A stretch of 64,000 bases of DNA, taken from Nanobdellota archaeon. Lineage in GTDB: Archaea > Nanobdellota > Nanobdellia > Woesearchaeales > GW2011-AR4. A program made the translations under genes and the position numbers. The notes beneath the pieces were generated by a model, which ran no database searches, was not told the DNA's origin, and was given only the letters and a program-made list of their open reading frames with translations. The stretch lies in the NCBI GenBank assembly GCA_038046385.1, contig JBBSWH010000009.1:32001-96000 (forward strand), in the 5' to 3' direction. Positions 28,088-60,946 of the stretch are shown here, piece after piece (the stretch's first letter is position 1; every line of letters begins with the position of its first letter).

Positions 28088-29383
28088 ATGGCAAAAACAA
28101 TTACTGTAGTGGGGCTGGGATACGTTGGATTGCCGGTTGCATGCCTTTGCGCAGAAAAAGGGCTTAAGGTCTACGGATTTGAAATAAGCAGCGAAAAAGT
28201 TTCTTCTATAAACAAATGGGAAAGCCCGATAAAAGATGACTACATCTCTGGCAAGCTTCTCCAGCTAAAAAGCCACGGCATAAAAATACACGCTACAACA
28301 AACCCGGCAGAGTGCATTCCATTTTCAGATGCAGTAATAATCTGCGTTCCAACGCCAATTGACAGGCACAACTCTCCAGATTTAACCGCATTGATGGAAT
28401 CAACAGCATCTGTTTCGAAACATATTAAGAAGGGAACTCTTCTTGTGATAGAGTCAACAATATATCCGGGAACAATTGAGGAGATTGTTTTGCCTATACT
28501 GGAAAAGCAAAAATTCGATTCCCATAATGATGATGTTTTTGTAGCTCACTGCCCTGAAAGGATAGACCCAGGCAACAGAAAATGGACAATAGAAATGCTA
28601 CCAAGAGTTGTTGGCGGAGTTACAAAAGAATCCACAAAAAAAGCAGCTGAATTTTACAGAAGCATAATCGAAGCTGATGTGATTGAGCTCAGCAGCGTAA
28701 AGGCAGCTGAAGCAACTAAGATAATGGAAAATACATTCAGGGATATAAACATAGCATTTGTCAACGAGATGGCGCAGAGCTTTGACAAAGCCGGAATCGA
28801 TATAATGGAAGTAATCAAAGGAGCATCAACAAAACCGTTTGCATTCATGCCGCATTATCCTGGTGCCGGAGTTGGCGGGCACTGCATACCTGTAGACCCT
28901 TATTATCTAATCGAAAAAGCCAAGCAAATAGGATTCAACCATAAATTCCTAAGCCTGGCAAGAGAGATAAATAACAGCATGCCGCATTATACGATACAGC
29001 TGCTCGAAAACGAGCTGCATAAGCTGAAAAAATCAATAAAAGGCGCAAAAGTCGGCGTTCTTGGGCTTGCGTACAAATCCAATGTGGACGACATAAGGGA
29101 AAGCCCGTCAGTTGAAGTAATAAATATTTTGAAGACAAAAGGCGCAGAAGTTTTAGTATATGATCCATACATTGCCAAGGAGAGCACAGCCTCAAGCCTG
29201 GATGAACTTTTGAGCCACAGCGACTATATTGTTCTGGTTACAGACCACGAAGAATTCAAAAGCATTGATCCAAAAAAATTAAAGGACAAGAAGATACATA
29301 TAGTAATAGACGGAAGAAACTGCCTTGACAAGGAAAAAATCAAGTCCATGGGAATATCTTATCACGGAATCGGAAGATACTAG
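28088..29383 (+). CDS. Nucleotide-sugar dehydrogenase (WecC/WbpA-like)
   Basis: GLGYVGLP, CVPTP, ESTIYPG, CPERIDPG, GVGGHCIPVDP and DDIRESP motifs. Confidence 0.93.
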   Translation: MAKTITVVGLGYVGLPVACLCAEKGLKVYGFEISSEKVSSINKWESPIKDDYISGKLLQLKSHGIKIHATTNPAECIPFSDAVIICVPTPIDRHNSPDLTALMESTASVSKHIKKGTLLVIESTIYPGTIEEIVLPILEKQKFDSHNDDVFVAHCPERIDPGNRKWTIEMLPRVVGGVTKESTKKAAEFYRSIIEADVIELSSVKAAEATKIMENTFRDINIAFVNEMAQSFDKAGIDIMEVIKGASTKPFAFMPHYPGAGVGGHCIPVDPYYLIEKAKQIGFNHKFLSLAREINNSMPHYTIQLLENELHKLKKSIKGAKVGVLGLAYKSNVDDIRESPSVEVINILKTKGAEVLVYDPYIAKESTASSLDELLSHSDYIVLVTDHEEFKSIDPKKLKDKKIHIVIDGRNCLDKEKIKSMGISYHGIGRY

Positions 29384-29388
29384 ATAAA

Positions 29389-30243
29389 ATGGCAAAAATA
29401 TGCATAGCCTGCAACAGCAAAAACAGCATAAAATTATTCAAAAAAACATCATTTCTAAAATATCCTCTTTATATCTGCGCATCATGCGGACTTTCTTTTT
29501 ACTATGCAGATGACAAAGACGTAGAAAAAAAATGCGATGAGTACTACAATTCCGCATACTGGGGCAGCGTAAGAAAAGATTGGGATGACCAGAGAAAGCT
29601 GATACTACCGATAATAAAAATAATGAGGATAATGAAGACAAAGCCGCTGCAGCAGATGTGGCATCACAGGCTTATGCAGAAGCACTCGGCATCGAAAGGC
29701 AAGCTTTTGGACATAGGCTGCGGCAAGGGAGAATTCATGATGTTCTTTCATCAAATGGGATATGATGTTGCAGGCATAGAGCCGGACAGAAACAATGCAG
29801 AACTTATCAACAAAAAGTTCAAAAGAGATGTGTGCATAAACAGCATTGCAGAAAAAGCAAAGCTAAAGGGCAAATACGACATTGTTTACCTGTGTCACGT
29901 ATTTGAGCACCTTATAAGGCCGGATAATTTCCTGAAGAACATGAAGAAAAACATATCAAAGAATGGAATGGTATTCATTGAGGTGCCAAACTGCGAAAAT
30001 CCAAGAATACTGGATAATTCAATAAAGCACCACCCGCATGTGTACAACTTCACTGCAAAATCACTGAAGAATCTTTTTGAAAACTGCGGCTATGAAATAC
30101 TCGAGATAGGGCCATATTCAGAAAAAAGAGGCAATTATGCATTGAAATTTTTTTTAATGGCGATGCAGCTTAATAATTATAGAAAAGCAAGCAACAAAGA
30201 CGGAGAAATGCTCATAGTGCTGGCAAAGCCAAAAAGACAATGA
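29389..30243 (+). CDS. Class I SAM-dependent methyltransferase with an N-terminal Zn ribbon
   Basis: CIAC...CASC, LLDIGCGKG, HVFEH and IEVPN motifs. Confidence 0.88.
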   Translation: MAKICIACNSKNSIKLFKKTSFLKYPLYICASCGLSFYYADDKDVEKKCDEYYNSAYWGSVRKDWDDQRKLILPIIKIMRIMKTKPLQQMWHHRLMQKHSASKGKLLDIGCGKGEFMMFFHQMGYDVAGIEPDRNNAELINKKFKRDVCINSIAEKAKLKGKYDIVYLCHVFEHLIRPDNFLKNMKKNISKNGMVFIEVPNCENPRILDNSIKHHPHVYNFTAKSLKNLFENCGYEILEIGPYSEKRGNYALKFFLMAMQLNNYRKASNKDGEMLIVLAKPKRQ

Positions 30244-30244
30244 A

Positions 30245-31429
30245 ATGACAATTTTAAAATATCTAAATTATTCATATTCGCTTATTGCAAAAGGCTCGCC
30301 TTTTTTTCTTGCAAACGAAATATCGAAGGATTTTCTCGGAATCAGAAACAAAACAGAAAAAAATTCTATCCATATAAAATCAGCTGTTGAATGGATTTTG
30401 AATGCGCAAAAAGCAAACAGCGACGGCGGGGTTTCTGAAATGTATTCTCTGTACAGGGGATGGCACGGATCTTATTCAGAGACAACCGGATACATAATCC
30501 CGACAATGTACAACTATTACAATAAAACAAAAAACCCAATAATAAAAGAGTCTGCAATCAGAATGGCAGAATGGGAACTGACAAAACAGCTTGATTGCGG
30601 CGCATTTCCAGGCGGAGCAACTGCGGACGGAAAAGAATTTCCCATTATATTCAACACAGGCCAGGTTCTTTTTGGAATGTCAAGGGCGTTTCAGGAGACT
30701 AAAGAAGAAAAGTACAGAAAATCTGCTGCAATGGCTGCAGACTGGCTTGTAAAAATACAGAACGCAAAAGGGCATTGGCAAAAATCAGAGTATCTTGAGA
30801 CAATACACACTTACAACACAAGAACAGCATGGGCGCTGCTGAAAGCATATGAAATAACCGGCAATAAAAATTATGCAAAATCATCAGCAAAAAACATAGA
30901 CTGGGCGCTGAATCAGCAGAATGAAAACGGATGGTTTGAAAACAATGCATTTCATAAAAATCAGGAGCCTTTGCTGCATACAATAGCATACACAATACAG
31001 GGAATTCTCGAATGCGGAATTTCTCTGCAAAACGACAAATACATTAATTCTGCAAAGCTATCATCAGACAAGATTATTGGCATGATGAAAGAAGACGGCT
31101 CAATTGCAGGAAGCTTTGACAGCAAATGGAAAAGCAGCGTTTCATGGTCATGCCTGACAGGAAACTGCCAGATGTCAATTGTATGGCTCAGGCTTTATTA
31201 TATTACAAAAGACAGGAAATACCTTGAAGCTGCAAAAAAATCCAACAATTTTGTAAAATCAACACAAAACATAAATTCAGGCCATGGCGGAATAAGGGGA
31301 GGTATAAAGGGCGCTTACCCGATTTACGGCTGGTATGCGCCGTTCTGCTACATAAACTGGGGCGCGAAATTTTTTGTTGATGCTTTAATGCTGGAAGAAT
31401 ACAAAAAAATCGGAAACTTTTTGTCATAG
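30245..31429 (+). CDS. (alpha/alpha)-barrel protein of unknown function with prenyltransferase/squalene-oxidase-type QW-like repeats
   Basis: SYSETTGYIIPT, IFNTGQV, repeated WL...Q..xG.W, LHTIAY, CLTG and YINWGAKFF.D motifs. Confidence 0.6.
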   Translation: MTILKYLNYSYSLIAKGSPFFLANEISKDFLGIRNKTEKNSIHIKSAVEWILNAQKANSDGGVSEMYSLYRGWHGSYSETTGYIIPTMYNYYNKTKNPIIKESAIRMAEWELTKQLDCGAFPGGATADGKEFPIIFNTGQVLFGMSRAFQETKEEKYRKSAAMAADWLVKIQNAKGHWQKSEYLETIHTYNTRTAWALLKAYEITGNKNYAKSSAKNIDWALNQQNENGWFENNAFHKNQEPLLHTIAYTIQGILECGISLQNDKYINSAKLSSDKIIGMMKEDGSIAGSFDSKWKSSVSWSCLTGNCQMSIVWLRLYYITKDRKYLEAAKKSNNFVKSTQNINSGHGGIRGGIKGAYPIYGWYAPFCYINWGAKFFVDALMLEEYKKIGNFLS

Positions 31430-32317
31430 CTGCCTGTTAAGGACAATTCTAGAAAATATCTTGTCCATAATCTTTGCAAAAGGCTTAAAGTATTTTATGA
31501 AAGGGTAAATTGCTATATTGAAAATCTTGAAGGCACCGTCATTTCTCAGGAAAAAATAAGGGTCCTTGCCGAGGAGATTAGTTCCTTCCTCAAACAGTTT
31601 GGAAGATTCAACTGCAATAATCTTTCCATTGCCAAGCTGCACTTCTTTCATAGTCTTATTTTTAATTAAGCAATTTTCAAACTTTGCCAATGAAGTGAAG
31701 AAATAGCTGTATTTCTCGTAGTATTTTATACTGCAGTCTTTTGGTTTTTTATTTTCAATCATTTTTCCCTTTATTTTTACAATATTCCTGTAAGGAACCC
31801 CGTGCATCTGCTCGATATAATGCGCAAATGTAAGCGACTGAAAAGGAGCGCCTAGAAACACAACCTTGCCGTTGCTCATGTGCAATTTTGCAAACACAGA
31901 ATCAGGCCCAAACGTATCTTCGCCTTTTTCAGAAAAATAATCTTTTAGGTTTCCCCAAACAGCAACAGAATGTGTTGGATGCAATGTTCTTTTTACTCCT
32001 TTCTGCTTCCTGAAGAATTCAGTCAATGTGCCTACTGAAGATTTTGTTGAATCAGGGTCAAAGACTTCTTTTTTTTCTATGCTATAGGAAAATGTCGGAA
32101 GTATTATTGTTCCTGATTTGCCTACTGATTCCTTAAGCGATTCGATAAGCGAGCCAAGAAGCAGTTCTCTGCCAGAAGCAAGTAGTTTTCCAAAAGACCC
32201 TATGTCGGAATGCACAAAAATAATATCTCCTTTTTCTATTCCTGCCTTTTTCAGGCTTTTCTGGAAGTCTATCTTCCTTAATATTGCACCGTTTGCCTCA
32301 TACAGCGGCTCATTCAT
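31424..32317 (-). CDS. AAC(3)-family N-acyltransferase
   Basis: GDIIFVHSD, GTIILPTFSYS, VGTLTEFFR, RTLHPTHSVAVWG and TFAHYIE...VPYR motifs. Start placed at ATG 32317, overlapping the maoC stop. Confidence 0.88.
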   Translation of the reverse strand: MNEPLYEANGAILRKIDFQKSLKKAGIEKGDIIFVHSDIGSFGKLLASGRELLLGSLIESLKESVGKSGTIILPTFSYSIEKKEVFDPDSTKSSVGTLTEFFRKQKGVKRTLHPTHSVAVWGNLKDYFSEKGEDTFGPDSVFAKLHMSNGKVVFLGAPFQSLTFAHYIEQMHGVPYRNIVKIKGKMIENKKPKDCSIKYYEKYSYFFTSLAKFENCLIKNKTMKEVQLGNGKIIAVESSKLFEEGTNLLGKDPYFFLRNDGAFKIFNIAIYPFIKYFKPFAKIMDKIFSRIVLNRQL

Positions 32318-32735
32318 TTTTGAATATGACCTGGACGATTCCATTGCCCCTGAATATAAGCTCGTTTTTGTTTCTGTATATCTCTGTTTTTATCTCTACA
32401 AATTTTGTAGACTCAATTTTTCTTGTAACCTTTCCAACCACTTTTAATTCATCGCCTATAAAATAGGGCTTTACAAACTCAGCATCCTGCTTTATGCAGA
32501 CTGAAGTGCCTCCGGGAAGGTATTCCCCATAGAGCCGTGATACAAAACTCGTGAGGAGAAAAGCATACCCTATTCTTTTTCCGAATTTTGTCTTTGATGA
32601 AAATTTTTCATTACAGTGTATTGGGCTTTTGTCCCCTGAGAGGTTAGAGAAGGCATTGTGGAGCTTCTCATCACACTTTACAGTAAAGCTTGCCTCGTCC
32701 CCAATGCCTATTTCTGAAAATATTTTTCCTTTCAT
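32310..32735 (-). CDS. MaoC-family hot-dog dehydratase
   Basis: FSNLSGDKSPIH hydratase-2 motif with catalytic Asp and His, plus LPG and F.KP...GD. Confidence 0.88.
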   Translation of the reverse strand: MKGKIFSEIGIGDEASFTVKCDEKLHNAFSNLSGDKSPIHCNEKFSSKTKFGKRIGYAFLLTSFVSRLYGEYLPGGTSVCIKQDAEFVKPYFIGDELKVVGKVTRKIESTKFVEIKTEIYRNKNELIFRGNGIVQVIFKNE

Positions 32736-32962
32736 TTTGCCTTGGCCTTTTTTTCAAACGAGTTTTTTAAGTCACCAAATGATTTTATGCTTTCTATTTC
32801 TTTTATAGTGAATTTTATCCCTGTTTTCTTTTCTATCTCGCTCATCAGCATCAGGTGATTGAATGAATCCCATTCTTCTGAATTGTCCCTGCTGAAACTG
32901 TCGTTCAGCTTTTCCTGCTTTATTCTAAGCACAGAAGCCATTATTGACTTTAAATTTTCCAT
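32732..32962 (-). CDS. Acyl carrier protein
   Basis: 76-aa protein with EWDSFNHL..L..EIE phosphopantetheine-Ser motif. Confidence 0.88.
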   Translation of the reverse strand: MENLKSIMASVLRIKQEKLNDSFSRDNSEEWDSFNHLMLMSEIEKKTGIKFTIKEIESIKSFGDLKNSFEKKAKAK

Positions 32963-32963
32963 T

Positions 32964-34772
32964 TTATTTTTCCATCACTTTTATAAAATCAGGGGCATTG
33001 TATTTTTTTGAAATGTCATATTGCCACAGCTCCGTTCCATTTTTCTTTTCCTTTAGCTTAAACCCATTATTCTTATAAAAATCCTTTGCAACTTCATTCT
33101 TATTTGTAGGAATAAAAAATGCCTTTAGCTGTTTTGCTTTTTTGGCTTTTGCTTCTTTTATTATAAACCAGAGCATAGACTCTTCAATCTTTCTTCCAAT
33201 AACCCTGCAGCTCAGAAGGAATGTGTCAATTTCCCATTCATCAGCAGATTTTTTGATGATTGCTGCTCCTACAATCCCATTGTCCCCAAATTTATCCCTG
33301 CTCCTGACAGAAACTACAATCTCATTTTTGTTATTTGACATTTTTTGAATATCCTCTTCAAGATACCTTTTTGTTGTCATATTGAACTGGTTTGTTTTTT
33401 GAGTCAGCTGTGATATCCTCGGAATGCTGAAGCTGCTGGCTTTTTCTATTGCAACAACGCTTCCAAGGCTTTTGAGATAAGAGTCTATATCTTTTGATGA
33501 GCTTTGAAGCTCTGCCCTTTTCCTTTGCTCTGCATACATTTTTCCTTTTTTAAAATCCTCTTCAGTTATGCTGAATAAATTGAAGTCATTTGTTTCCATC
33601 AGGGTTTTTAGGTAAAGCGACGGGTCTTCCGGCATGTCAACAACAGTTACCTCGGGAAGCATTTTCCTGACAAAATCCCTGTTTAATTTATCATCGTCAA
33701 TGAAGACCAGGCTATCTAAGCCTATGTTAAGCTCTTTTGCAATTTCTGCAATGTTTGATGCTTTGTCATCCCAGTTTATTTTCATGGATGCGAAATTGTT
33801 TTCCCTTAAGACCATGTCGGGATGTTTTTTAAAAACTTCAATTGCATCATTAAAATTGTTTTTGCTGCTTATTGCAAGTATCACACCTCTTTCGAACATC
33901 GCCAGCAGCGCTTTCTGGAACTCCGTAAACGGCCTTCCTTCAGGAGTGTTTCCTATTTTTATGCCTTCAATTCCGTCTTCTCCTATTATTCCGCCCCAAA
34001 GCGTGTTGTCAAGATCAAGCACGATGCATTTTTTTGTCAGGATCATCAACGGCTTTATGTAACCCATGTAATCTTTGCACAAATAAGGAACGCTCTGAAT
34101 GCTTAGCCTGATATCTCCCATGTAATACATCTTGAAATCTGTTGTATTTTCTTTGCCGATTTTTGAGCAGAACGATTCATAATCAAACAGGAACACTTTT
34201 GGATTATTTTTGCAATAATCCCTTAAATCAGAGTTTAATTTTTCAACAGACTCTTTTAACCCAAAATCCTGCCGGTTTTCAAGAATTCCTATAGGGGAGT
34301 AAACAGGAACTTCAAAGTTATGCACAACTATTTTTGCAGTTGTTTTTTTCTCCAGTTTTTCAATAAGAATTTTTATGTCATTAAATTTTGAATTTATGTA
34401 TGTTTTTCTCTTGCCGGATGATATGGAATACGGATTTAGGAAATAATCCTGCAGAATTGATTTTGTGTCAATGAAAAGAATCACAAGGCTTGGATTGAAT
34501 TTGTACAAATCACTCGAATCATCAAGGATTTCCTGGGAATACTGATTATATCCCCCGATGTAAATATCTGGGGTTATGCCTGCTTCGCAGCATTTCACAA
34601 AGATAGATTCTTTAAATCCGTTTGAAGTAAAGCTCGAGAGAAAGGCAACTTTCAGCTTCTTGCCGCTTATCTTATTTTTTTTAATTTCAGAATTCAGATG
34701 TTTGTAGAGGTTGATGTAGTCCGGCATGTTTTTTGGATTTTTTTTCTTTATTATCTGGATTATTCTTTTCAT
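32964..34772 (-). CDS. FkbH-like HAD-IIIC phosphatase / glyceryl-ACP transferase
   Basis: KCIVLDLDNTLWGG, SKNN, INWDDKA, FIDD, QLTQKTNQFN, DKFGDNG and FLLSCRVIGR (catalytic Cys). Confidence 0.93.
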   Translation of the reverse strand: MKRIIQIIKKKNPKNMPDYINLYKHLNSEIKKNKISGKKLKVAFLSSFTSNGFKESIFVKCCEAGITPDIYIGGYNQYSQEILDDSSDLYKFNPSLVILFIDTKSILQDYFLNPYSISSGKRKTYINSKFNDIKILIEKLEKKTTAKIVVHNFEVPVYSPIGILENRQDFGLKESVEKLNSDLRDYCKNNPKVFLFDYESFCSKIGKENTTDFKMYYMGDIRLSIQSVPYLCKDYMGYIKPLMILTKKCIVLDLDNTLWGGIIGEDGIEGIKIGNTPEGRPFTEFQKALLAMFERGVILAISSKNNFNDAIEVFKKHPDMVLRENNFASMKINWDDKASNIAEIAKELNIGLDSLVFIDDDKLNRDFVRKMLPEVTVVDMPEDPSLYLKTLMETNDFNLFSITEEDFKKGKMYAEQRKRAELQSSSKDIDSYLKSLGSVVAIEKASSFSIPRISQLTQKTNQFNMTTKRYLEEDIQKMSNNKNEIVVSVRSRDKFGDNGIVGAAIIKKSADEWEIDTFLLSCRVIGRKIEESMLWFIIKEAKAKKAKQLKAFFIPTNKNEVAKDFYKNNGFKLKEKKNGTELWQYDISKKYNAPDFIKVMEK

Positions 34773-35128
34773 TTTTTCATGACAATTGCGAATGCCAATG
34801 CCTTGTCTTTGCAGTGGGATAGGCTTATTTTAATCTTCACATTTTTGAATTTGTTTAGACTTGCTTTTGGAGCGTCATCAGTACTCGTTATCTCAATGTC
34901 ATTGTACGAGACTTTTGATTTAATACTTATGGAAGACAAAGCCTTAACTATAGACTCTTTTCCGGCAAACCTTGCTGCAAGATGCTGTCCCGGAGATTTT
35001 TTTGAGTAGCAGTAATCAAGCTCTTTGCCGGTATATATCTTTTTCAAAAATATTTTATCTTTTATCCTGCTTAATTTCTTAAACCTTTTTATATCCTCTA
35101 TATCAGTTCCTATACCAATTTCTTTCAT
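34769..35128 (-). CDS. acpS: Holo-ACP synthase (4'-phosphopantetheinyl transferase)
   Basis: GIGTDIEDIKR, LAARFAGKESIVKAL and ISLSH motifs. Confidence 0.93.
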   Translation of the reverse strand: MKEIGIGTDIEDIKRFKKLSRIKDKIFLKKIYTGKELDYCYSKKSPGQHLAARFAGKESIVKALSSISIKSKVSYNDIEITSTDDAPKASLNKFKNVKIKISLSHCKDKALAFAIVMKK

Positions 35129-35134
35129 AGCGCC

Positions 35135-36226
35135 TTAGCAAACATTTTCTATAATACTTACAATCCTCTCAGTAGCCTTTCCGTCCCACAATTTAGGGAT
35201 TTTATTCTTTACTTTTATTTTTCCGCTTATTATTTCAAGAGATTTGCTTATTACTTTTTTGCTGTCTGTGCTAACAAGCAAATTTGTGCCCTGGCTTACA
35301 GTCACTGGCCTTTCTGTGCTGTTCCTCATGGTTATGCACGGTATTCTAAGAACCGTTGTTTCCTCCTGTATACCGCCGGAATCTGTCAAAACAAACCTGC
35401 TGTTTGACATCAGGCAAAGAAAGTCAAGGTATCCTAATGGATCCGTGACAATCAAATTTTTCATTGATGATATCTTATTATTTAGGCCAAAAGACTCAAT
35501 ATTTTTTCTTGTTCTTGGATGAACCGGAAAAACAATCTTGATTTTATTTTGGACTTTTTCAAGTATTGATATTATTTTTTTAAGGCCGTTTTTAGTGTCT
35601 ACGTTGCTGGGCCTGTGCAGCGTTAATACGCAGTATTCTTTTTTCTTTAATTTAAGATCTTTAAGAATTTTTGATTTGGAAGCTTTTTCTTTGTGCTGAA
35701 GAAGCGTGTCTATCATCACATTACCGACAAAGAAAATCCTTTCATTTGGTATTTTTTCATTAAGCAGGTTTTTCCTTGCGCTTTCTTCTGTTGTGAAAAG
35801 AAAATTGCTTATTCCGTCTGTAAGGATTCTGTTTATCTCTTCAGGCATTTCCATGTCGAAGCTCCTTAATCCGGCTTCAACGTGCGCAACCTTTATTCCA
35901 AGGTGCTTTGCAGCAAGCGCCCCTGCAAATGTAGAGTTTACGTCACCAACAACAACAACCAAATCAGGATTTTCATTCTTCAGCACTTTTTCAATCTCAG
36001 ATGTCATTTTTTCTATCTGCTCCATTCTGTTTCCTGAGCTGATTCCAAGATTAACATTCGGCTTTGGCAAATTTAATTCATCGAAGAAAAGCCTGCTCAT
36101 CTTTTTATCGTAATGCTGGCCCGTATGGACAAGAATGTGGTTTATTTTTCTTTTTTTGAATTCTTTTATCAGCGGGGCAATCTTCATGAAATTCGGCCTT
36201 GTTCCAACTATGCTGACAATTTTCAT
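35135..36226 (-). CDS. wecB: UDP-N-acetylglucosamine 2-epimerase, non-hydrolysing (WecB/WbpI family)
   Basis: GTRPNFMK, HTGQHYD, HVEAGLRS, PEEINR, TDSGGIQEE and ERP motifs. Start ATG 36226. Confidence 0.93.
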   Translation of the reverse strand: MKIVSIVGTRPNFMKIAPLIKEFKKRKINHILVHTGQHYDKKMSRLFFDELNLPKPNVNLGISSGNRMEQIEKMTSEIEKVLKNENPDLVVVVGDVNSTFAGALAAKHLGIKVAHVEAGLRSFDMEMPEEINRILTDGISNFLFTTEESARKNLLNEKIPNERIFFVGNVMIDTLLQHKEKASKSKILKDLKLKKKEYCVLTLHRPSNVDTKNGLKKIISILEKVQNKIKIVFPVHPRTRKNIESFGLNNKISSMKNLIVTDPLGYLDFLCLMSNSRFVLTDSGGIQEETTVLRIPCITMRNSTERPVTVSQGTNLLVSTDSKKVISKSLEIISGKIKVKNKIPKLWDGKATERIVSIIENVC

Positions 36227-36246
36227 GATACTCCGCAACCCAAATC

Positions 36247-36276: not shown

Positions 36277-37404
36277 ATGGGAAAACTGACAGTTGCTATT
36301 GTAATGCCGACGCATTTTGATGTTCATTCCTCACTTCTTAACTTTCTCAAGACATATGAATACCTTATCAAAAACAGGAATATTGATGTAACACTTTTTA
36401 CGGACAGCAGGAATAAAGTAGATTACAAAAAACTGAAAATAGAGAAGATTGAAGGGTTTGATTACGGAACCGGAATCGACAAAATTCTTTTCCTGCTCGG
36501 AATCCCGAGGTTTTATTATAAAAAACTTGACGAAAAATTAAAGAAGTTTGATGTCATAACATCAAATAATCCTGAATTTTATGCTTTTGCATACCAGTCA
36601 TACAAAGCAGCAAAAAGGCACAACAAGAGATTTGTATTAAGGACTTCACAGAGCGTTGAAGGATTCTTTTTCTTTAAGCTGACAAAATTCTTTTTATGCC
36701 CTTTTGTCAAAAAGGCATACGATTATTCCAAGTTTGTGGTATTTTCAAATCCTCAGGCAGAGGAAAGGTGCTTAAAATTAGGGCTTATTGACGACAGGAG
36801 AAAGAGCATAATCACTGGCCATGCGACTGATGTTGAATGTTTTAAACCTATTAAAACGAAAAAAGGAAAAAATACAATCCTGCTTTCTGTCGGAGGATTA
36901 TTGGAGCTTAAAGGACATCATTTAATAATAAAGTCACTTAAGAAGATTATTGACAACGGCCATAAAAACACAGAATTATGGATTGTTGGCGAGGGTTATT
37001 ACAAACAAAAACTGCAGGATCTTGCAAAAGAGCTCGGAGTGGAAGATAATGTAAGGTTCCTCGGCAAGAAAGGCCACAATGAGCTTGCAACGATTTACAA
37101 CATGTCAGACATTTTTGTCCTTGCCAATTATCAGGAGATAACCCCTGCTGTGAACGAGGCGCTTGCTTGCGGAAAGCCTGTTGTTGCCATGGAATGCGGC
37201 GGCTGCGAATTTGTAATTCCCAACAAAAATTATGGATTGGTTTCAAGAAGATTTGATGTTGATGATATGGCAAGCAAGATAATCCTGCTGATGAAAGACA
37301 AGAAGCTTGCCTCCAAAATTGCAGCAAACGGAAGAAAAAGGATTCTTGAGAATTTCTCCATAGAAAAAGTGGCAGACAAGGTATACAGGGCATATACAGA
37401 ATGA
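36277..37404 (+). CDS. GT4 glycosyltransferase
   Basis: SVGGLLELKG, DIFVL and EITPAVNEALACGKPVV motifs. Confidence 0.9.
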   Translation: MGKLTVAIVMPTHFDVHSSLLNFLKTYEYLIKNRNIDVTLFTDSRNKVDYKKLKIEKIEGFDYGTGIDKILFLLGIPRFYYKKLDEKLKKFDVITSNNPEFYAFAYQSYKAAKRHNKRFVLRTSQSVEGFFFFKLTKFFLCPFVKKAYDYSKFVVFSNPQAEERCLKLGLIDDRRKSIITGHATDVECFKPIKTKKGKNTILLSVGGLLELKGHHLIIKSLKKIIDNGHKNTELWIVGEGYYKQKLQDLAKELGVEDNVRFLGKKGHNELATIYNMSDIFVLANYQEITPAVNEALACGKPVVAMECGGCEFVIPNKNYGLVSRRFDVDDMASKIILLMKDKKLASKIAANGRKRILENFSIEKVADKVYRAYTE

Positions 37405-37467: not shown

Positions 37468-38052
37468 ATGCCAAAATTTCTCATACATCCGACAGCAGAT
37501 GTTGCAAAAAATGCAAAAATAGGAAATGGAACTAAGATATGGCACCATTGCCACGTAAGGGAAAATGTTTCTATAGGGAAAAACTGCATTCTTGGCAAGA
37601 ATGTTTACATTGACCATAATATCAAAATAGGCAACAATGTAAAGATACAGAACAACTGCTCCATTTATTTTGATTCTAAAATTGAAGACGGAGTTTTTAT
37701 AGGGCCCCATGTGGTTTTTACAAACGACACAAATCCAAGGGCGATCACAAGAGACGGGAAAATTAAATCAGCAAATGAATGGAATGCCGGAAAGATTCTG
37801 ATAAAAAAAGGAGCTTCAATAGGCGCACGCTCTGTTTTACTGCCGAATTTGACTATTGGAACCTTTGCAATGGTTGGCGCAGGATCTGTTGTAACAAAAA
37901 ATGTTGGTGATTACCGCTTGGTGTATGGGAATCCTGCAAGAGTCATGGGCTTCGTATGCGCGTGTGGGCATAAAATAAAAAATCCAGAGATGGAAAAATC
38001 CAAGATAGTATTGAAATGCGATAAGTGCAAGCATACCACAATAACAAAATGA
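37468..38052 (+). CDS. WbpD/WlbB-like hexapeptide N-acetyltransferase with a C-terminal Zn-ribbon-like tail
   Basis: IHPTA.V, IWH, VKIQNN, VFTND.NPR, GNPAR and CACG...CDKC motifs. Confidence 0.88.
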   Translation: MPKFLIHPTADVAKNAKIGNGTKIWHHCHVRENVSIGKNCILGKNVYIDHNIKIGNNVKIQNNCSIYFDSKIEDGVFIGPHVVFTNDTNPRAITRDGKIKSANEWNAGKILIKKGASIGARSVLLPNLTIGTFAMVGAGSVVTKNVGDYRLVYGNPARVMGFVCACGHKIKNPEMEKSKIVLKCDKCKHTTITK

Positions 38053-39146
38053 TAAATATTTCCAAGCCTTCTATCGGAAAAGAGGAGATTGATGCTGTTG
38101 TTAATGTCCTTAAATCAGGAATGATAGCGCAGGGGCCGAAAACAAAGGAATTTGAGCAGGAATTTGCAAAATTTGCTGGGGTAAAATATGCTGTAGCAAT
38201 GAATTCCGGAACAGCAGCCCTGCACGCTGCGCTTTATGCAGCAGGCGTGAAAGAAAATGATGAAGTCATAACAACTCCATTTACATTCATTGCAACTGCA
38301 AATTCCATTCTTATGCAGAATGCAAAGCCAGTCTTTGCTGATATAGAAGAAGATAATTTCAACATTGATGCTTCCCAGATTGAAAATAAAATAACAAAAA
38401 AGACAAAGGCAATACTTGCTGTTGACCTTTATGGGCACCCTTATGCTTATGATGATGTAAAGGAGATTGCTGACAAGCACGGGCTTAAGATAATAGAGGA
38501 TGCATGCCAGGCTGTTGGCGCTGATTTTAACGGAAAGAAATGCGGCTCTTTAGGGGATATTGGAACGTTTTCATTCTATGCGACAAAAAACATGACAACA
38601 GCAGAGGGCGGAATGCTCACGACAGACAATGAAGAATACGCTGAGCTTGCAAAACAGCTTCGTCATCATGGGCAGAGCGAAAAAGTAAGATACGAATATT
38701 TCGGCCTTGGATACAATTACAGGATGACAGACATAAATGCTGCAATCGGGCTTGAGCAGATGAAGAAGATAAATGAATGGAACAAAAAAAGGATAGACAA
38801 TGCAGCTTTTTTGAGCAAACGCCTTGGGAAAATAAAAGGAATAAAAGTTCCTGCTGTTCAGAAGAACTGTACGCACGTTTTCCACCAATATACCATTATT
38901 GTAAAAGATGATTTCAAAATGAAAAGAGACGGGCTTATGGAACATCTTAAGCAGAAAGGCGTTGGAAGCGGAGTTTATTATCCAAAGCCGCTGCACTTAT
39001 TTAAGCACATTTCAAAATTCGGATACAAGCAAGGGGATTTTCCGGTTGCAGAAAAACTTTCTCAGCAGGTTTTGTCTTTGCCAATCCATCCGCAGCTTAC
39101 AAAAGAAGAGCTTGAAACAATAGCAAAAGCATTCGAGGAAATATGA
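38049..39146 (+). CDS. DegT-family aminotransferase (WbpE-like)
   Basis: EDACQA, FSFYATKNMTTAEGG and GYNYRM motifs. ATG 38049 overlaps the upstream stop. Confidence 0.92.
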   Translation: MINISKPSIGKEEIDAVVNVLKSGMIAQGPKTKEFEQEFAKFAGVKYAVAMNSGTAALHAALYAAGVKENDEVITTPFTFIATANSILMQNAKPVFADIEEDNFNIDASQIENKITKKTKAILAVDLYGHPYAYDDVKEIADKHGLKIIEDACQAVGADFNGKKCGSLGDIGTFSFYATKNMTTAEGGMLTTDNEEYAELAKQLRHHGQSEKVRYEYFGLGYNYRMTDINAAIGLEQMKKINEWNKKRIDNAAFLSKRLGKIKGIKVPAVQKNCTHVFHQYTIIVKDDFKMKRDGLMEHLKQKGVGSGVYYPKPLHLFKHISKFGYKQGDFPVAEKLSQQVLSLPIHPQLTKEELETIAKAFEEI

Positions 39147-40138
39147 AACTTAAAGTTGCAGTTATCGGAGCAGGTGCAATGGGCAAGAACCATGCAAGAG
39201 TTTATTCTGAGATGAAGAATGTTGAGCTTGTTGCAGTATGCGATTCCAGCAAAGAAGTTGGCGGGCAGATTGCAGCGCTTTACGGCGCAAAATACTATTC
39301 TGATTACAAAGATATGCTTGCAAAAGAGAAGCTTGACGCGGTTTCAATCTGCGTTCCGACAAAATTTCACCGTGAAGTTTCTATTGCAGTTATCAAAAAG
39401 AAAATAAATGTGCTTGTTGAAAAGCCGATTGCGACTACTGTTTCGGAAGCAGAAGAAATAATTTCAGAAGCGCAGAAAAATAAAGTAAAACTAATGATTG
39501 GCCACATTGAGTGCTTTAATCCGGTTGTTGTTGAACTGAAAAGAAGAATTGCCGGGGGAGAGCTTGGCAAGATATACAAAGTCCATTGCAACAGGATGGG
39601 GCCTTCTGTTCAGAGAATTTATGATGTTGGCGTTATCATAGACATTGCAATCCATGAGATTTACATTCTGAAGTACCTTATTGACTCTGATGTCAAGAGA
39701 GTTTATGCAGAGACAGAAAGGAAGATACACTCAACACACGAAGATTTGCTTATAGGGACAATACGATTCAGCAACGATGTGCTTGGTGTTATCAATGCAA
39801 ACTGGATTACGCCTAGGAAGTTCAGGGAGATAACGGTTACAGGCGAGAAAGGAATGTTTGTTGCCAATTATCTGACCCAGGATCTTGATTTTTATGAGAA
39901 CGATTTTGTCAAGAAAAATATTGACTACAAAAGCCACACAATGCTTGTGATGGAAGGAAAGAAAATTCCTATTGATGTGAAGAAAAGCGAGCCACTTCGC
40001 AATGAGCTTGATGCTTTTGTTGACTGTGTTTTAAACGACAAAAAAGTGCCTGTAACTGGCAATGAAGGGCTTGAAGCTTTGCGTGTTGCGCAGAAGTTCC
40101 TTGAGTCATCTAAACAGAATAAAGTGATGGAATTATGA
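39143..40138 (+). CDS. Gfo/Idh/MocA oxidoreductase (WbpB-like UDP-sugar 3-dehydrogenase)
   Basis: VIGAGAMGKNH, VEKP and DIAIHE motifs. Lies in an operon with the WbpD- and WbpE-like genes. Confidence 0.85.
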   Translation: MKLKVAVIGAGAMGKNHARVYSEMKNVELVAVCDSSKEVGGQIAALYGAKYYSDYKDMLAKEKLDAVSICVPTKFHREVSIAVIKKKINVLVEKPIATTVSEAEEIISEAQKNKVKLMIGHIECFNPVVVELKRRIAGGELGKIYKVHCNRMGPSVQRIYDVGVIIDIAIHEIYILKYLIDSDVKRVYAETERKIHSTHEDLLIGTIRFSNDVLGVINANWITPRKFREITVTGEKGMFVANYLTQDLDFYENDFVKKNIDYKSHTMLVMEGKKIPIDVKKSEPLRNELDAFVDCVLNDKKVPVTGNEGLEALRVAQKFLESSKQNKVMEL

Positions 40139-41313
40139 AAATAAGCGTTTCCGGCTTGGGAAAGGCAGGATTGCCATTGGCTGCGGTTATTGCAGATGCA
40201 GGAATTGATGTTATCGGAATAGATGTTGATGTTAAAAGGGTTGCCGACATTAACAATGGAGTTAATCCAATACCGGAAGAAACCGGATTATCTTCTTTAA
40301 TTAAGAAATACGGCGGGAAGAGATTAAAGGCAACTACAAATGCTGCCGATGCTGTAAAGGAAACTTCTGCCCATATTGTGATTGTTCCTTTGTTTATTGA
40401 TTCCGCGAAGAAATGCGATTTTTCTTTGTTACAGAAGGCTTTTACTGATATTGGAAACTCTCTTAAGAAGAATGATGTTGTTGTGCTTGAAACAACTGTT
40501 CCGGTTGGGACAACAGAGACTTTTGTGAAAGGGATACTTGAGAAAGAGTCTGGACTTAAATGTGGTTCTGATTTTTACCTTGCATATTCTCCTGAGAGGA
40601 TAATGACGGGATATTCTATTTCACGCTTTAAGGAATTTCCAAAATTGGTTGGAGGGGTTGATGCTAAAAGTTCGCAAAAGGCATTTGAAGTTTATTCAAA
40701 GTTTGCAAACCCTGTCAAGGTTAGTAATTCAAGAACAGCAGAGCTTGCGAAAGTATCTGAAGGCGTTTATCGCGATGTCAATATTGCTTTAGCCAATGAA
40801 TTGCTTAAAGTTGCTGAACATTATTCAATAGACTTCTGGGAGATGAAAGAGGCTGCAAATCACCAGTTTTGCAACATACACGAGCCAGGGAATGTCGGAG
40901 GGCATTGTATTCCAGTCTATCCGTGGTTTTTAATTAATTCACTTGATGTTCCACTGATTAAAGTTGCACGCAAACTGAATGATGATATGATTGAATTCTA
41001 TGCTGGCAAGGTTGCTGCAATTGGTGGGAAGAAAGTCGGAGTGATTGGACTAAGCTACAGGGAAGGCGTCAAGGAAAAGGCATATTCACGCTCTGTTGAC
41101 ATGATTAAACTGCTTCAGAAGAAAGGATATGATGTTTATGGGTATGATCTGCTTTATTCTGCAGAAGAAACTTTGAAAGAGTTCGGCTGCAAGTATCTTG
41201 ATGACTTTGGAAAGATGGATGTTTTGATACTGATGAACAAGGAAGTTTCTTTGAAAAGCAAATTACTTAAGATGAAGGATAAGGTTGTTGATGTGAAGAA
41301 TGTTTTAAGATGA
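40135..41313 (+). CDS. Nucleotide-sugar dehydrogenase (WbpA-like)
   Basis: GLGKAGLP, LETTVPVG, YSPER and VGGHCIPVYP motifs. Confidence 0.9.
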   Translation: MKISVSGLGKAGLPLAAVIADAGIDVIGIDVDVKRVADINNGVNPIPEETGLSSLIKKYGGKRLKATTNAADAVKETSAHIVIVPLFIDSAKKCDFSLLQKAFTDIGNSLKKNDVVVLETTVPVGTTETFVKGILEKESGLKCGSDFYLAYSPERIMTGYSISRFKEFPKLVGGVDAKSSQKAFEVYSKFANPVKVSNSRTAELAKVSEGVYRDVNIALANELLKVAEHYSIDFWEMKEAANHQFCNIHEPGNVGGHCIPVYPWFLINSLDVPLIKVARKLNDDMIEFYAGKVAAIGGKKVGVIGLSYREGVKEKAYSRSVDMIKLLQKKGYDVYGYDLLYSAEETLKEFGCKYLDDFGKMDVLILMNKEVSLKSKLLKMKDKVVDVKNVLR

Positions 41314-59854: not shown

Positions 59855-60904
59855 TTATTTTACAGATTCTGACATTAATTTAATGTCATAATCGACCATA
59901 AGATTGACTAGATCGCTGAAAGTGGTCTTTGGTTTCCATCCGAGCTTTTTCTTTGCATAAGATGAATCTCCAAGAAGCTCTTCAACTTCAGTAGGCCTGA
60001 AATAAACCGGATCAATTTTCACTATTGTTTTTTTTGTTTTTTGGTCAATTCCTATCTCATTAATCCCCTTTCCTTCCCATACTATGTTAATGCCAACTCT
60101 TGCAAATGCCTTTTCTACAAATTCCCTTACTGTGTGGTTTTAGCCTGTTGCTATAACAAAATCTTCCGGCTCTTTTTGCTGCAGCATAAGCCACATTGCT
60201 TCTACATATTCCTTTGCATAACCCCAGTCCCTTTTTGCATCAAGGTTTCCGAGGACAAGCTGGTTATCCAGCCCGAGCTTGATTTTAGCAACCTGCTGCG
60301 TCACTTTCTTCGACACAAAATTTTCCCCCCTTCTTTCAGATTCGTGGTTGAAAAGTATGCCGTTGCAGCAGAACATTTTGTAAGCTTCCCTGAAGTTGAT
60401 GGTTATCCAATGAGAATACAGCTTGGCTATTCCGTAAGGGCTTCTTGGATAAAAAGGCGTTTTTTCAGTCTGGGGGACTTCAAGAACCTTGCCATAAAGC
60501 TCGCTTGTGGATGCATTGTAAAACCTTACCTTATCCACCATGTTAAGATTTTTTATTGACTCAAGAATCCTTAAAGTTCCCAGTGCATCTGAATTTGCCG
60601 TATATTCAGGTATCTCAAAAGAAATCTTTACGTGGCTTTGCGCTGCAAGGTGGTAAACTTCAGTTGGCATTACATCCTTAAGAATCTTTATTATGGAGCT
60701 TGAGTCGGTCATGTCCCCGTAATGCAGCGTTAATTTGCCCCTTTCTTCATGGTCATAGTCATAGATGCTCTTCAGCCTTTCCCTGTTGAATGAGCTTGAG
60801 CGCCTTGCTATCCCATGGACTTCGTAGCCTTTCTTAAGCAAGAATTCAGCGAGAAAAGACCCGTCCTGCCCAGTAATTCCGGTAATCAAAGCAACTTTCT
60901 TCAT
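59855..60904 (-). pseudogene. gmd: GDP-mannose 4,6-dehydratase with one in-frame TAA at 60140-60142
   Basis: [24 protein letters not shown] and NHESERRG motifs. After VIATG* the same frame continues NHTVREFVEKAF...DPVYFRPTEVEELLGD...KLGWKPK to a TAA at 59855-59857 (350 codons in total). Confidence 0.88.
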
Positions 60905-60946
60905 AATTTTACAGAAAAGGAACTGTATTTAAATATTTTCTATTTT

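Follow-up and report, generated by a model that had tools for sequence, protein, structure and literature searches.

A probable carrier-dependent sugar N-acylation cassette in the protein-glycosylation island of an apparently DPANN archaeon

Introduction

Acyl-ACP-dependent N-acylation of amino sugars is performed by LpxD, by NodA/NodF and, in butirosin biosynthesis, by BtrH/BtrI. Formation of glyceryl-ACP by FkbH/OzmB-type enzymes belongs to polyketide, tetronate and methoxymalonyl-ACP pathways, and FkbH combined with a dehydratase (DH) and a ketoreductase (KR) is a route to lactyl starter units. Equally, the AAC(3) fold is otherwise familiar from aminoglycoside resistance, and the synthesis of nucleotide sugars includes the WbpA/B/E/D/I pathway and the archaeal UDP-ManNAc3NAcA pathway of methanogens.

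The delivery of a glycerate-derived acyl group to a glycan sugar is not without precedent, as the cj1295-cj1302 region of C. jejuni NCTC 11168 is a published genetic analogue. The 'N-acetyltransferase' Cj1296/7 of this region is putatively AAC(3)-like. Strains of C. jejuni without an intact fkbH-domain gene cj1302 or cj1301 do not produce pseudaminic acid carrying dimethylglyceric acid, and the same sugar is lost when cj1295 is mutated, the evidence presented there being genetic and mass-spectrometric only, with no enzyme assays (PMC7099621, PMC3068675). In strain 11168, however, Cj1296/7 is listed as out of frame in both variants while the dimethylglyceroyl sugar is made (PMC3068675, Table 1), so that an AAC(3)-like enzyme may be dispensable there, which counts against the role proposed below. 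A literature search for the archaeal cassette considered here returned no biochemical description of it or of any step in homologous glycan cassettes.

The locus and its six-gene operon

The window, the whole stretch of 64,000 nucleotides that was analysed, contains six open reading frames (ORFs) which an ORF check places on the minus strand at the coordinates of the preliminary description, and whose family assignments hold by profile matches:

35135..36238, minus strand: wecB, first gene of the operon, WecB-type non-hydrolysing UDP-HexNAc 2-epimerase (PF02350, Epimerase_2, 374 bits; TIGR00236 wecB 360.7, cut-off 210.15)
34769..35128, minus strand: acpS, AcpS-type 4'-phosphopantetheinyl transferase (PF01648, ACPS, 51.3 bits; TIGR00556 71.8, cut-off 45.35; TIGR00516 acpS 65.3, cut-off 59.8)
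32964..34772, minus strand: fkbH, FkbH-like loader with N-terminal, HAD-IIIC and C-terminal Cys domains (FkbH_N 68.5 bits; TIGR01686 FkbH domain 322.5, cut-off 146.65)
32732..32962, minus strand: dedicated ACP of 76 aa, Ser33 in WDSF being the predicted phosphopantetheine site (PP-binding 19.4 bits)
32310..32735, minus strand: maoC, MaoC-type hotdog dehydratase (PF01575, MaoC_dehydratas, 49 bits, cut-off 27)
31424..32344, minus strand: aac3-like, Antibiotic_NAT (AAC(3)-fold) protein, predicted acyl-ACP:amino-sugar N-acyltransferase (PF02522 143.5 bits, cut-off 25)

The wecB frame opens with TTG at 36238, and the ATG at 36226 considered previously lies 12 nt inside. Junctions of at most 6 nt, initially ascribed to the entire operon, are found at the first four positions (wecB/acpS, 6-nt gap; acpS/fkbH, 4-nt overlap; fkbH/ACP, 1-nt gap; ACP/maoC, 4-nt overlap) and not at maoC/aac3-like, where the frames overlap by 35 nt, or by 8 nt with the inner ATG at 32317. 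Gene order and flanking genes, the position of wecB included, are the same in four related loci (L027, L029, L033, L035) and the visible parts of L030, L036 and L037 match as well, with AAC(3)-like identities of 51-86% throughout this set. As gene order and flanks recur in related loci, the operon arrangement is not due to chance.

The catalytic motifs described as intact are all present and conserved in homologues from related loci, comprising DLDNTLWGG and SCR of FkbH (33 homologues), WDS of the ACP (49 sequences; W31 and S33 invariant in 25 homologues), gD..P.H of MaoC and the H175/E178 pair (HxxE) of the AAC(3)-like protein, invariant in 28 sequences. The N-terminal half of FkbH matches PDB 3slr (E 4.7e-60). 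Counting against the assignment, the PP-binding score of the ACP is just below the Pfam cut-off of 20.8. The genome holds no other PP-binding match at E <= 0.001, and fkbH is its only FkbH match. Presence of PGK and GAPDH indicates that 1,3-bisphosphoglycerate can be made, while CoaBC (DFP) was not found in the 85%-complete genome, so that CoA for AcpS may need to be scavenged.

The host is archaeal and apparently a member of the DPANN, in agreement with the initial suspicion of an archaeal locus. The genome contains L19e, a marker which otherwise matched only in the four archaeal controls, STT3/AglB is encoded on the same contig, and among the top 120 FkbH matches 9 of the 11 with an organism name are Woesearchaeota, Nanoarchaeia or Nanoarchaeota. 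In favour of an archaeal host, searches of the genome found neither L20 nor tmRNA; counting against it, the archaeal markers S28e and PcrB were equally not found, and neither was rRNA.

Neighbouring genes and the acceptor sugar

The operon is flanked on both sides by genes of predicted sugar metabolism and modification:

28088..29383, plus strand: nucleotide-sugar 6-dehydrogenase, UDP-ManNAc dehydrogenase-like (TIGR03026 444.6, cut-off 189.8; archaeal UDP-ManNAc dehydrogenase model 329.6, under 750)
29389..30243, plus strand: SAM-dependent methyltransferase, conserved neighbour of the SDR-less variant (Methyltransf_23 86 bits)
30245..31429, plus strand: (alpha/alpha)6-toroid protein, possibly uronate C5-epimerase-like or lyase-like (weak matches to C5-epim_C, Pec_lyase, SQHop_cyclase_C and GH127)
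36277..37404, plus strand: GT4 glycosyltransferase, divergent from wecB (Glycos_transf_1 122 bits; same position in L027, L029, L033, L035)
37468..38052, plus strand: left-handed beta-helix (LbH) sugar N-acetyltransferase, WbpD-like (Hexapep 108 bits; NeuD/PglB/VioB subfamily 109, under 160.8)
38025..39146, plus strand: DegT-family sugar aminotransferase, WbpE-like, from which the acceptor amine is predicted to come (PF01041 442 bits)
39143..40138, plus strand: GFO/IDH/MocA oxidoreductase, UDP-GlcNAc 3-dehydrogenase-like, WbpB-like (NF040723 archaeal UDP-GlcNAc 3-dehydrogenase 349.8, under 450)
40135..41313, plus strand: second nucleotide-sugar 6-dehydrogenase, WbpA-like (TIGR03026 322.8, cut-off 189.8)

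The (alpha/alpha)6 gene is convergent on aac3-like and adjoins its counterparts in 14 of the 80 loci surveyed (best 80 of 331), and the Atlas neighbours of its product are likewise of mixed kind. Since GFO, DegT and LbH genes and two NDP-sugar dehydrogenases are adjacent, the acceptor is likely a 2-acetamido-3-amino sugar produced by the WbpA/B/E/D-like enzymes, and wecB might encode a candidate WbpI-like epimerase of a 2,3-diamino sugar. All three DegT genes counted previously are present (25159-26253, 38025-39146 and 61688-62809), and the amino-sugar acceptor then proposed is plausible; more specifically, the acceptor would be the product of the adjacent WbpB/WbpE-like pair rather than that of any one of three DegT enzymes or GDP-perosamine. 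Counting against a cassette for N-acylation, the WbpD-like acetyltransferase is encoded next to the DegT enzyme, and two acyltransferases would then contend for a single amine.

Proposed pathway

On the basis of sequence comparison and structural modelling, the locus probably encodes a carrier-dependent sugar N-acylation cassette within the protein-glycosylation island of this archaeon, for which we infer the following chemistry, acceptor sugar and acyl product. AcpS would convert the dedicated ACP into the holo form, the FkbH-like enzyme would load the glyceryl unit of 1,3-bisphosphoglycerate to give glyceryl-S-ACP, and MaoC would dehydrate this to enolpyruvoyl/pyruvoyl-S-ACP. Docking of the ACP to the AAC(3)-fold protein would allow the latter to pass the C3 acyl unit on to a nucleotide sugar with a free amine. 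This amine is most likely at C3 of a UDP-2-acetamido-3-amino-2,3-dideoxy-hexose or -hexuronate derived from the 3-dehydrogenase and DegT pair, and the WecB-type epimerase, the two 6-dehydrogenases and the GT4 enzyme would serve sugar processing and installation. In the SDR-less variant, the acyl group might stay 2-oxo, become lactyl through an unlinked SDR or be altered by the neighbouring methyltransferase.

Carrier linkage among relatives

Linkage was surveyed within 6 kb in the best 80 of 331 metagenome relatives of the AAC(3)-like protein. ACP, AcpS, FkbH, MaoC or SDR genes occur in 62 of these 80 loci, in 34 of the 35 where one side shows 5 kb or more and in all 19 where both sides do (ACP in 16, AcpS in 14, FkbH in 11), and in loci without FkbH the transferase stands alongside an ACP and an AMP-binding ligase or LuxE/LuxC. 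Eleven related archaeal loci likewise contain the AcpS-FkbH-ACP-MaoC unit, the enzyme at its end being exchangeable (Antibiotic_NAT in three, MBOAT in three, LbH in three). Direct fusions among the 28 long representatives scanned include PP-binding::NAT and MaoC::NAT (four each, with a further seven MaoC::NAT fusions counted besides), NAT::methyltransferase (five) and NAT::DUF4910 (four, DUF4910 being M28-like), one of the latter carrying also an ACPS domain; a search with the single AAC(3)-like protein returned no fused forms above 537 aa. Elsewhere, fusion partners of the MaoC domain are Antibiotic_NAT, SDR and methyltransferase domains.

By this comparison the gene set is conserved elsewhere; the cassette is portable and the route, with its predicted functions, widespread. 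The preliminary description had explained the operon's own PPTase by the host being archaeal. AcpS is indeed the only ACPS/PPTase match of the genome; yet its interpretation as an archaeal adaptation is rejected. As it accompanies the cassette in 14 of the 19 well-flanked related loci mentioned, which are of unassigned taxonomy, AcpS is a component of the portable cassette.

The dehydration of glyceryl-ACP to enol/pyruvoyl-ACP proposed at the outset fits the MaoC-SDR-NAT gene order, present in 11 of the 80 loci, and the fusion of MaoC with SDR in L021, an arrangement which mirrors FkbH+DH+KR; the final acyl group may be pyruvoyl, lactyl or methylated. Counting against the proposed pathway, neither the operon nor any of the seven loci closest to it in synteny has a ketoreductase, so that the product would be an alpha-keto thioester or amide, and we know of no example of an alpha-keto acyl sugar decoration in any known glycan. 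It is conceivable, if rather less probable, that the same pathway delivers a lactyl (2-hydroxypropanoyl) or O-methylated group, an unlinked SDR of the genome or the neighbouring methyltransferase finishing the ACP- or sugar-bound unit. The SDR-containing loci, to which a further 6 of the 80 with an SDR directly before the transferase are added, are consistent with this possibility, as are two classical SDRs elsewhere in the genome which are about 30% identical to the cassette SDRs, themselves equally far from each other (median 28% identity), and the NAT::methyltransferase fusions together with methyltransferase homologues directly 3' of MaoC::NAT fusions (L041, L043, L047, L048, L056). However, neither genomic SDR shares a contig with the cassette or shows a link to it, and the SDR-less MaoC-NAT order is kept in 18 of the 80 loci, all close syntenic relatives included, which argues that a dedicated reductase is unneeded.

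It appears unlikely that MaoC is non-dehydrating and the unit remains glyceroyl, with the hotdog protein acting as thioesterase, editor or acyl-ACP chaperone. N-glyceroyl and di-O-methylglyceroyl amides do occur as documented decorations of glycans (PMC5378307, PMC3068675), and 11 of the 80 loci with ACP-NAT order but no MaoC suggest that transfer without dehydration is possible for the enzyme clade; against this, the hydratase-2 type Asp/His motif of MaoC is conserved in 37 homologues and a ketoreductase-type SDR regularly follows, or is fused to, MaoC, which is sensible only after dehydration.

Structure of the AAC(3)-fold protein

With the AAC_3 equivalog, the AAC(3)-like protein reaches 89.3, far below the cut-off of 270. 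Its structure model (pLDDT 92.8) has an additional C-terminal helical hairpin (residues 271-305) and is matched in Foldseek by BA2930, YokD, AAC(3)-IVa and FrbF (E about 1e-20, target TM 0.74-0.80), and no solved AAC(3)-ACP complex is among the sequence or fold matches. A model of the AAC(3)-ACP interface, a check suggested beforehand, passes its controls with a score of 0.67 versus 0.00 for the best of three, a score which is the model's own confidence on alignments built by the author. Of 80 solved complexes 58 attain this mark, as do 2 of 110 mismatched pairs. The runs agree in at least 97% of their contacts, the ACP partner has a pLDDT of at least 85, and the serine loop of the ACP (D32-S33-F34) with helix II contacts enzyme residues 47-54 and 101-109, adjoining the invariant H45, S46, G52, V104 and G105.

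Neighbourhood, domain fusion and complex model tie this AAC(3)-fold clade to carrier proteins, a predicted association new here, and lend comparative support to the original suggestion of an ACP-dependent N-acyltransferase. That the protein is an ordinary acetyl-CoA sugar N-acetyltransferase, with FkbH-ACP-MaoC serving another acceptor, for example in lipid or O-acylation, is improbable: its solved relatives (BA2930, YokD, FrbF, AAC(3) enzymes) are all acetyl-CoA users, the catalytic H..E pair is kept and MBOAT or LbH enzymes replace it beside the same carrier unit in related archaeal loci, but the near-total carrier-gene linkage where flanks are visible (19/19), the fusions to PP-binding, MaoC and PPTase domains, the complex model and an operon without another acyltransferase argue otherwise.

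Comparison with known systems

The predicted cassette resembles C. jejuni cj1295-cj1302, where an amino sugar bearing a glycerate-derived acyl amide, N5-(2,3-di-O-methylglyceroyl) pseudaminic acid, is correlated with the fkbH-domain gene cj1302 and an 'N-acetyltransferase' gene, cj1296/7, lies beside it (PMC7099621, PMC3068675). The aminopeptidase-like Cj1295 can, by size and annotation alone as given there, be likened to the DUF4910/M28-like proteins that adjoin members of the AAC(3)-like clade or are fused with them, and no DUF4910 gene was found in the window. In contrast, the C. jejuni sugar is described as a nonulosonic acid from which the acetyl group is first removed, while the window has MaoC, an adjacent 2,3-diamino-sugar pathway and an archaeal host.

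As in the Wbp and UDP-ManNAc3NAcA pathways, 3-dehydrogenase, DegT, LbH, 6-dehydrogenase and WecB-type 2-epimerase genes stand side by side; the window differs in its predicted second, carrier-dependent acyltransferase and in specific equivalog scores which are all under the cut-offs. With FkbH/OzmB systems it shares an FkbH domain in which the HAD motif and the Cys are kept, along with a dedicated ACP followed by a dehydratase, whereas the operon is without ketosynthase, PKS or NRPS, its MaoC hotdog is free-standing and the product would go to a sugar. The transferase has the fold and the invariant H..E pair of AAC(3) enzymes, FrbF and YokD, from which it is set apart by identities of 17-25%, the C-terminal helical extension and carrier linkage or fusion. 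Finally, as with LpxD, NodA/NodF and BtrH/BtrI, an ACP-borne acyl group would be transferred to a sugar amine, yet, unlike the folds of LpxD (LbH), NodA and BtrH, the predicted transferase is of Antibiotic_NAT fold and the acyl group would derive from glycolysis.

A compact operon for predicted carrier-bound acyl chemistry

The six co-oriented genes of the preliminary description were confirmed, in position and strand, from the ORF coordinates, and each family assignment was borne out by Pfam and NCBIfam models with the acyl carrier protein (ACP) as the sole shortfall. The operon comprises the following genes:

36238..35135, minus strand, wecB
35128..34769, minus strand, acpS (PF01648 51.3, cut-off 25; TIGR00556 71.8, cut-off 45.35; TIGR00516 65.3, cut-off 59.8; all exceeded)
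34772..32964, minus strand, fkbH-like gene (FkbH domain TIGR01686, HAD-IIIC, 322.5 bits, above the curated cut-off of 146.65)
32962..32732, minus strand, ACP (Pfam PP-binding 19.4 bits, below the gathering score of 20.8)
32735..32310, minus strand, maoC (Pfam 49 bits against a cut-off of 27)
32344..31424, minus strand, AAC(3)-like gene, encoding the transferase (Pfam Antibiotic_NAT, 143.5 bits)

Spacing of at most 6 nt, as originally described, holds for the first four junctions (in order a 6-nt gap, a 4-nt overlap, a 1-nt gap and a 4-nt overlap) and fails for the last, where maoC and the AAC(3)-like gene overlap by 35 nt, or by 8 nt if an inner ATG is the start; the start at 32344 was kept because the longer N-terminus is common to homologues. 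Against the NCBIfam ACP models the carrier scored 18.7 bits, below 71. Among its 25 homologues W31 and S33 are invariant and D32 is found in at least 90%, and the protein carries a DS(L/F) serine where helix II begins, has a length in the range of about 75-90 residues and adjoins a loading enzyme and a phosphopantetheinyl transferase. The remaining catalytic motifs named at the outset are conserved in relatives as well. In the FkbH-like protein, HAD motif I (DxDxT) in the form DLDNTLWGG and the C-terminal cysteine motif SCR, the cysteine of which is the acyl acceptor in FkbH proteins, occur in at least 90% of 33 homologues; the Asp/His motif gD..P.H of MaoC is conserved among 37 homologues and the H175/E178 pair (H..E) of the transferase is invariant.

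Association of the transferase with carrier proteins

Gene neighbourhoods and protein fusions link the AAC(3)-fold transferase to carrier proteins. A word-index search retrieved 71 transferase relatives, 7 of which combine MaoC and Antibiotic_NAT in one protein. For fourteen of the 71 relatives the longest contig is as long as that listed for an FkbH homologue, an indirect hint of a common contig. An alignment-based metagenome scan gave 331 relatives, and for the best 80 of these the ORFs of each locus were searched with the window proteins, a carrier-cassette gene being defined as one for ACP, AcpS, FkbH, MaoC or SDR that lies no more than 6 kb from the transferase. Such a gene was found in 62 of the best 80 loci, in 34 of the 35 whose flank reaches 5 kb or more on one side and in all 19 for which both flanks do (ACP 16, AcpS 14, FkbH 11, MaoC 9, SDR 7). 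The 18 loci without one are mostly short, with about 3 kb or more of flank in L038, L054, L075 and L076. Upstream of the transferase (NAT) the order among the best 80 loci is MaoC-NAT in 18, MaoC-SDR-NAT in 11, SDR-NAT, where MaoC is missing or lies beyond the contig, in 6 and ACP-NAT without MaoC in 11; fusion-sized ORFs of 1150-1300 nt account for 7 and other or uninformative arrangements for 27. Two of the fusion-sized ORFs were domain-scanned, and the one from locus L081 contains MaoC and NAT, that from L041 NAT alone at the threshold used.

A search for longer, fused transferases from a single protein retrieved none; a profile search among 1.84 billion representative proteins, with 8304 matches at E <= 0.001 and 1632 at E <= 1e-30, did find them. 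Among the best 150 profile matches 29 exceed 330 aa, and the 28 of these scanned with Pfam include PP-binding::NAT (4; P0193, P0240, P0328, P0338), MaoC::NAT (4), NAT::methyltransferase (5), NAT::DUF4910/M28-like (4) and single cases of HAD::NAT, GH57::NAT and NAT::class-II tRNA-synthetase-like, together with two double NAT proteins and six with no second family. One of the four NAT::DUF4910/M28-like proteins, P0238 with 812 aa, joins Antibiotic_NAT and the DUF4910/M28-like domain to HTH_47 and a C-terminal ACPS phosphopantetheinyl-transferase domain.

In the FkbH-less loci L051, L059, L067, L074, L097 and L104 an AMP-binding ligase serves the ACP. Where an FkbH-less transferase is served by ACP and ligase (L051, L067, L097, L104) or by LuxE/LuxC in place of carrier-cassette genes (L054), DUF4910 proteins adjoin, and L051 has in addition a PseB/LegB-like dehydratase gene; this arrangement suggests a family of N-acyl swap modules that act on nonulosonic acids.

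Foldseek matched the structure model of the transferase (pLDDT 92.8) to BA2930, YokD, AAC(3)-IVa, AAC(3)-IIIb and FrbF at E about 1e-20 and 17-25% identity, and Pfam score, fold and H..E pair place the protein in the Antibiotic_NAT fold superfamily. It departs from the solved AAC(3) enzymes and from more distant members of its clade in having two additional helices, amphipathic and basic, at the C-terminus (residues 271-305, window 31424-31534), which are confined to the closest relatives and may be a membrane or partner anchor. Identity as an antibiotic-resistance gene was rejected on the fixed glycan synteny and on the scores, since the NCBIfam AAC_3 equivalog gave 89.3 bits, below 270, and every AAC(3) subtype model stayed far below its own cut-off.

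Modelling of the transferase-ACP interface, already envisaged in the preliminary description, supports predicted binding of the ACP by the transferase. The complex scored 0.67 (three runs: 0.50, 0.67, 0.68) against 0.00 for the best of three controls; that level was attained by 58 of 80 solved complexes, as against 2 of 110 mismatched pairs, counts that are rough because own alignments were used. The runs share at least 97% of contacts with a partner pLDDT of at least 85. On the carrier the modelled contacts comprise residues 29, 32-34, 36-38, 40-41, 53 and 56-57, that is, the serine loop and helix II, and on the enzyme residues 47-54, 58-63, 101-109 and 239, adjoining the invariant H45, S46, G52, V104 and G105.

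The cassette in archaea and its host genome

To our knowledge, the host lineage has been thought to have no acyl carrier proteins at all. Within the host phylum, an FkbH-like protein was found in 10 of the 401 genomes searched, the host genome (G000) included, and the transferase clade in 5, of which 4 also possess FkbH; one genome of the same genus has neither. Predicted ACP/AcpS chemistry occurs in DPANN archaea with a rare and patchy cassette. The genes fkbH, ACP, maoC and aac(3) recur together in archaeal and metagenome loci. In 11 archaeal loci (L002, L003, L014-L022) selected by the presence of FkbH, hence in 11 of 11, AcpS and MaoC each occur in 10 and ACP in 9, of which eight were detected with phmmer and that of L018 with Pfam. 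The last enzyme varies: it is Antibiotic_NAT in L014, L021 and L022, MBOAT in L015, L018 and L020 and a left-handed beta-helix acyltransferase in L002, L003 and L016. MaoC is followed by SDR in L016, L017 and L019, and fused to SDR in L021 and to a methyltransferase in L018. The six-gene order and flanks of the window are reproduced in L014, with L015 among the MBOAT variants; these two loci derive from unpublished genomes (G360 and G243), and because public metagenome loci show the same features, nothing concluded here rests on the two. A scan of genome contigs with the FkbH protein alone yielded just 2 loci. Plasmids contributed 203 FkbH records, all below 60% identity, among which an MBOAT-ACP-FkbH group in Sinorhizobium and a fatty-acid/PKS-like cluster in a Bacillaceae plasmid were traced; neither was informative about the SDR-less variant.

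The window covers C9:32001-96000 of the host assembly, which has 1.28 Mb on 19 contigs and is 85% complete. A bacterial contig or mis-binning was considered as the origin of the operon. On its side, S28e, PcrB and SSU rRNA were not found in G000, which counts against the archaeal reading. Against it stand an STT3/AglB oligosaccharyltransferase of 1085 aa on the contig itself (G000:C9:22366-25623, lying upstream of the window by about 6 kb) and the DPANN origin of those homologues that are nearest among the named ones: the nearest FkbH belongs to a Candidatus Nanoarchaeia with 85% identity, and 9 of the 11 proteins carrying an organism name among the top 120 FkbH matches are from DPANN archaea, 2 from bacteria. 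Ribosomal protein L19e, a family matched only in the four archaeal controls, is present in G000, and L20 was not found; Aragorn without intron mode detected 8 intron-less tRNAs only, and a tmRNA was not found. Since STT3/AglB lies on the same contig, the island probably serves N-glycosylation.

The operon appears largely self-contained. Its AcpS is the only phosphopantetheinyl transferase match in G000 (the family was matched in 10 bacterial and none of four archaeal controls), its FkbH is the only one, and with PP-binding nothing in G000 reached E 0.001. PGK and GAPDH are present for the supply of 1,3-bisphosphoglycerate; CoaBC (DFP family) was not found in the 85% complete genome, though AcpS needs CoA as donor.

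The proposed acyl group and acceptor

In polyketide pathways the product of FkbH chemistry is glyceryl-ACP. Here, the FkbH-like protein would form glyceryl-S-ACP from 1,3-bisphosphoglycerate and the hotdog dehydratase MaoC would convert it to pyruvoyl-ACP in its enol form. Elsewhere MaoC is often followed by an SDR, in keeping with reduction to lactyl; such an SDR never occurs in the window's sub-type, the 18 loci with direct MaoC-NAT order, which keeps a methyltransferase nearby, homologues of which directly follow fusion-sized transferase ORFs. The two classical SDRs of G000, possible trans-acting ketoreductases, lie on other contigs and share about 30% identity with cassette SDRs, whose own median pairwise identity is just 28%. 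As the predicted delivered unit, we commit to a dehydrated C3 group, which may be pyruvoyl, lactyl or methylated.

The window forms one glycan island with four nucleotide-sugar dehydrogenases, many glycosyltransferases, PMT_2 proteins, methyltransferases, sulfatases and, consistent with the first description, three DegT genes (Pfam survey). Divergent from wecB run five genes, for a GT4 glycosyltransferase, a WbpD-like LbH acetyltransferase, a DegT aminotransferase, a GFO oxidoreductase (best model the archaeal UDP-GlcNAc 3-dehydrogenase NF040723, 349.8 bits, under the cut-off of 450) and a nucleotide-sugar dehydrogenase, whereas the genes that run towards the transferase in convergent orientation encode a second dehydrogenase, a methyltransferase and an (alpha/alpha)6 protein. 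The complete flanking block recurs in L027, L029, L033 and L035, its visible parts in L030, L036 and L037. On the simplest reading of this gene set, the acceptor would be a 2-acetamido-3-amino sugar, and its 3-amine would be acetylated by the LbH enzyme or, alternatively, given the C3 unit by the AAC(3)-fold enzyme.

Three further genes of the island were noted. The (alpha/alpha)6 toroid protein (30245-31429) is the convergent neighbour of the transferase in 14 of the best 80 loci, and in one Atlas cluster the same fold occurs in proteins mostly with a formyltransferase domain (Formyl_trans_N, 91% of members), which suggests a general link of the toroid to N-acylated sugars. The GDP-mannose 4,6-dehydratase gene (59855-60928, minus strand) has one in-frame TAA at 60142..60140 (...FVIATG*NHTVREF...), past which the frame runs on for 94 codons; the gene may be a pseudogene, or the stop an error of sequencing or assembly, and the interruption bears on the GDP-perosamine previously considered as acceptor. 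In the middle of the island, a 584-aa ORF (41318-43072, minus strand) combines an HNH_3 endonuclease motif with a C-terminal DnaJ domain.

The mechanism first proposed, in which FkbH loads the ACP, MaoC dehydrates and the AAC(3) homologue transfers a C3 acyl group to an amino sugar, finds support in outline and has been corrected in detail. Carrier-protein-dependent C3 acylation of an amino sugar is probable as the general scheme; the specific acceptor and acyl group are proposed with lower confidence. We regard as unlikely the joint reading that AAC(3)-fold proteins are a large unrecognised class of carrier-protein-dependent sugar N-acyltransferases with the resistance enzymes as a CoA-using side branch, and that the DPANN host decorates a diamino-uronic acid in an AglB-linked glycan with a C3 amide of 2-oxo (pyruvoyl) or enol-ether type; if true, this C3 amide decoration would be new to description. 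The cassette offers a concrete, testable enzyme set for N-glyceroyl, lactyl-type and methylglyceroyl amides of bacterial surface sugars, and the Antibiotic_NAT fold would gain a second, carrier-dependent job in a large clade (the 1632 representatives).

Comparison with published systems

The closest published case is the cj1295-cj1302 region of Campylobacter jejuni. Cj1296/7 is a putative AAC(3)-fold protein and Cj1295 a putative DUF4910/DUF2172 protein, identities consistent with the sizes and M28 matches in the fusion scan. The flagellin of strain NCTC 11168 carries 5-N-(2,3-di-O-methylglyceroyl) pseudaminic acid, which is lost in a cj1295 mutant, and the aminopeptidase-like Cj1295 is proposed to take off the 5-N-acetyl group (PMC3068675). 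A second report finds no dimethylglyceric-acid ions in strains whose 'fkbH domain-containing gene cj1302' is disrupted or that lack cj1301 (PMC7099621). The neighbouring 'N-acetyltransferase' Cj1296/7 is described as out of frame in both variants (PMC3068675), and a strict need for Cj1296/7 is therefore disfavoured. A 2017 paper on Tannerella forsythia still described the genetics behind the N-glyceroyl group as 'a major challenge' (PMC5378307). In a literature search of article texts, no biochemical description of the cassette was found; within that search PMC7099621 was the only work linking FkbH with a glycan, and nothing relevant appeared for FkbH together with O-antigen, capsule or lactyl.

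The window differs from the Campylobacter module in the absence of the DUF4910/M28-like partner that would free the amine: neither DUF4910 nor DUF2172 was found among the 52 window ORFs, whereas in other loci such domains lie beside the transferase or are fused to it. Like that module, the window combines an fkbH-domain gene (cj1302 in Campylobacter; PMC7099621), a carrier and a predicted N-acyltransferase in a glycan locus. The scheme is a variant of known FkbH loading and ACP-dependent sugar N-acylation that is widespread and easy to test.
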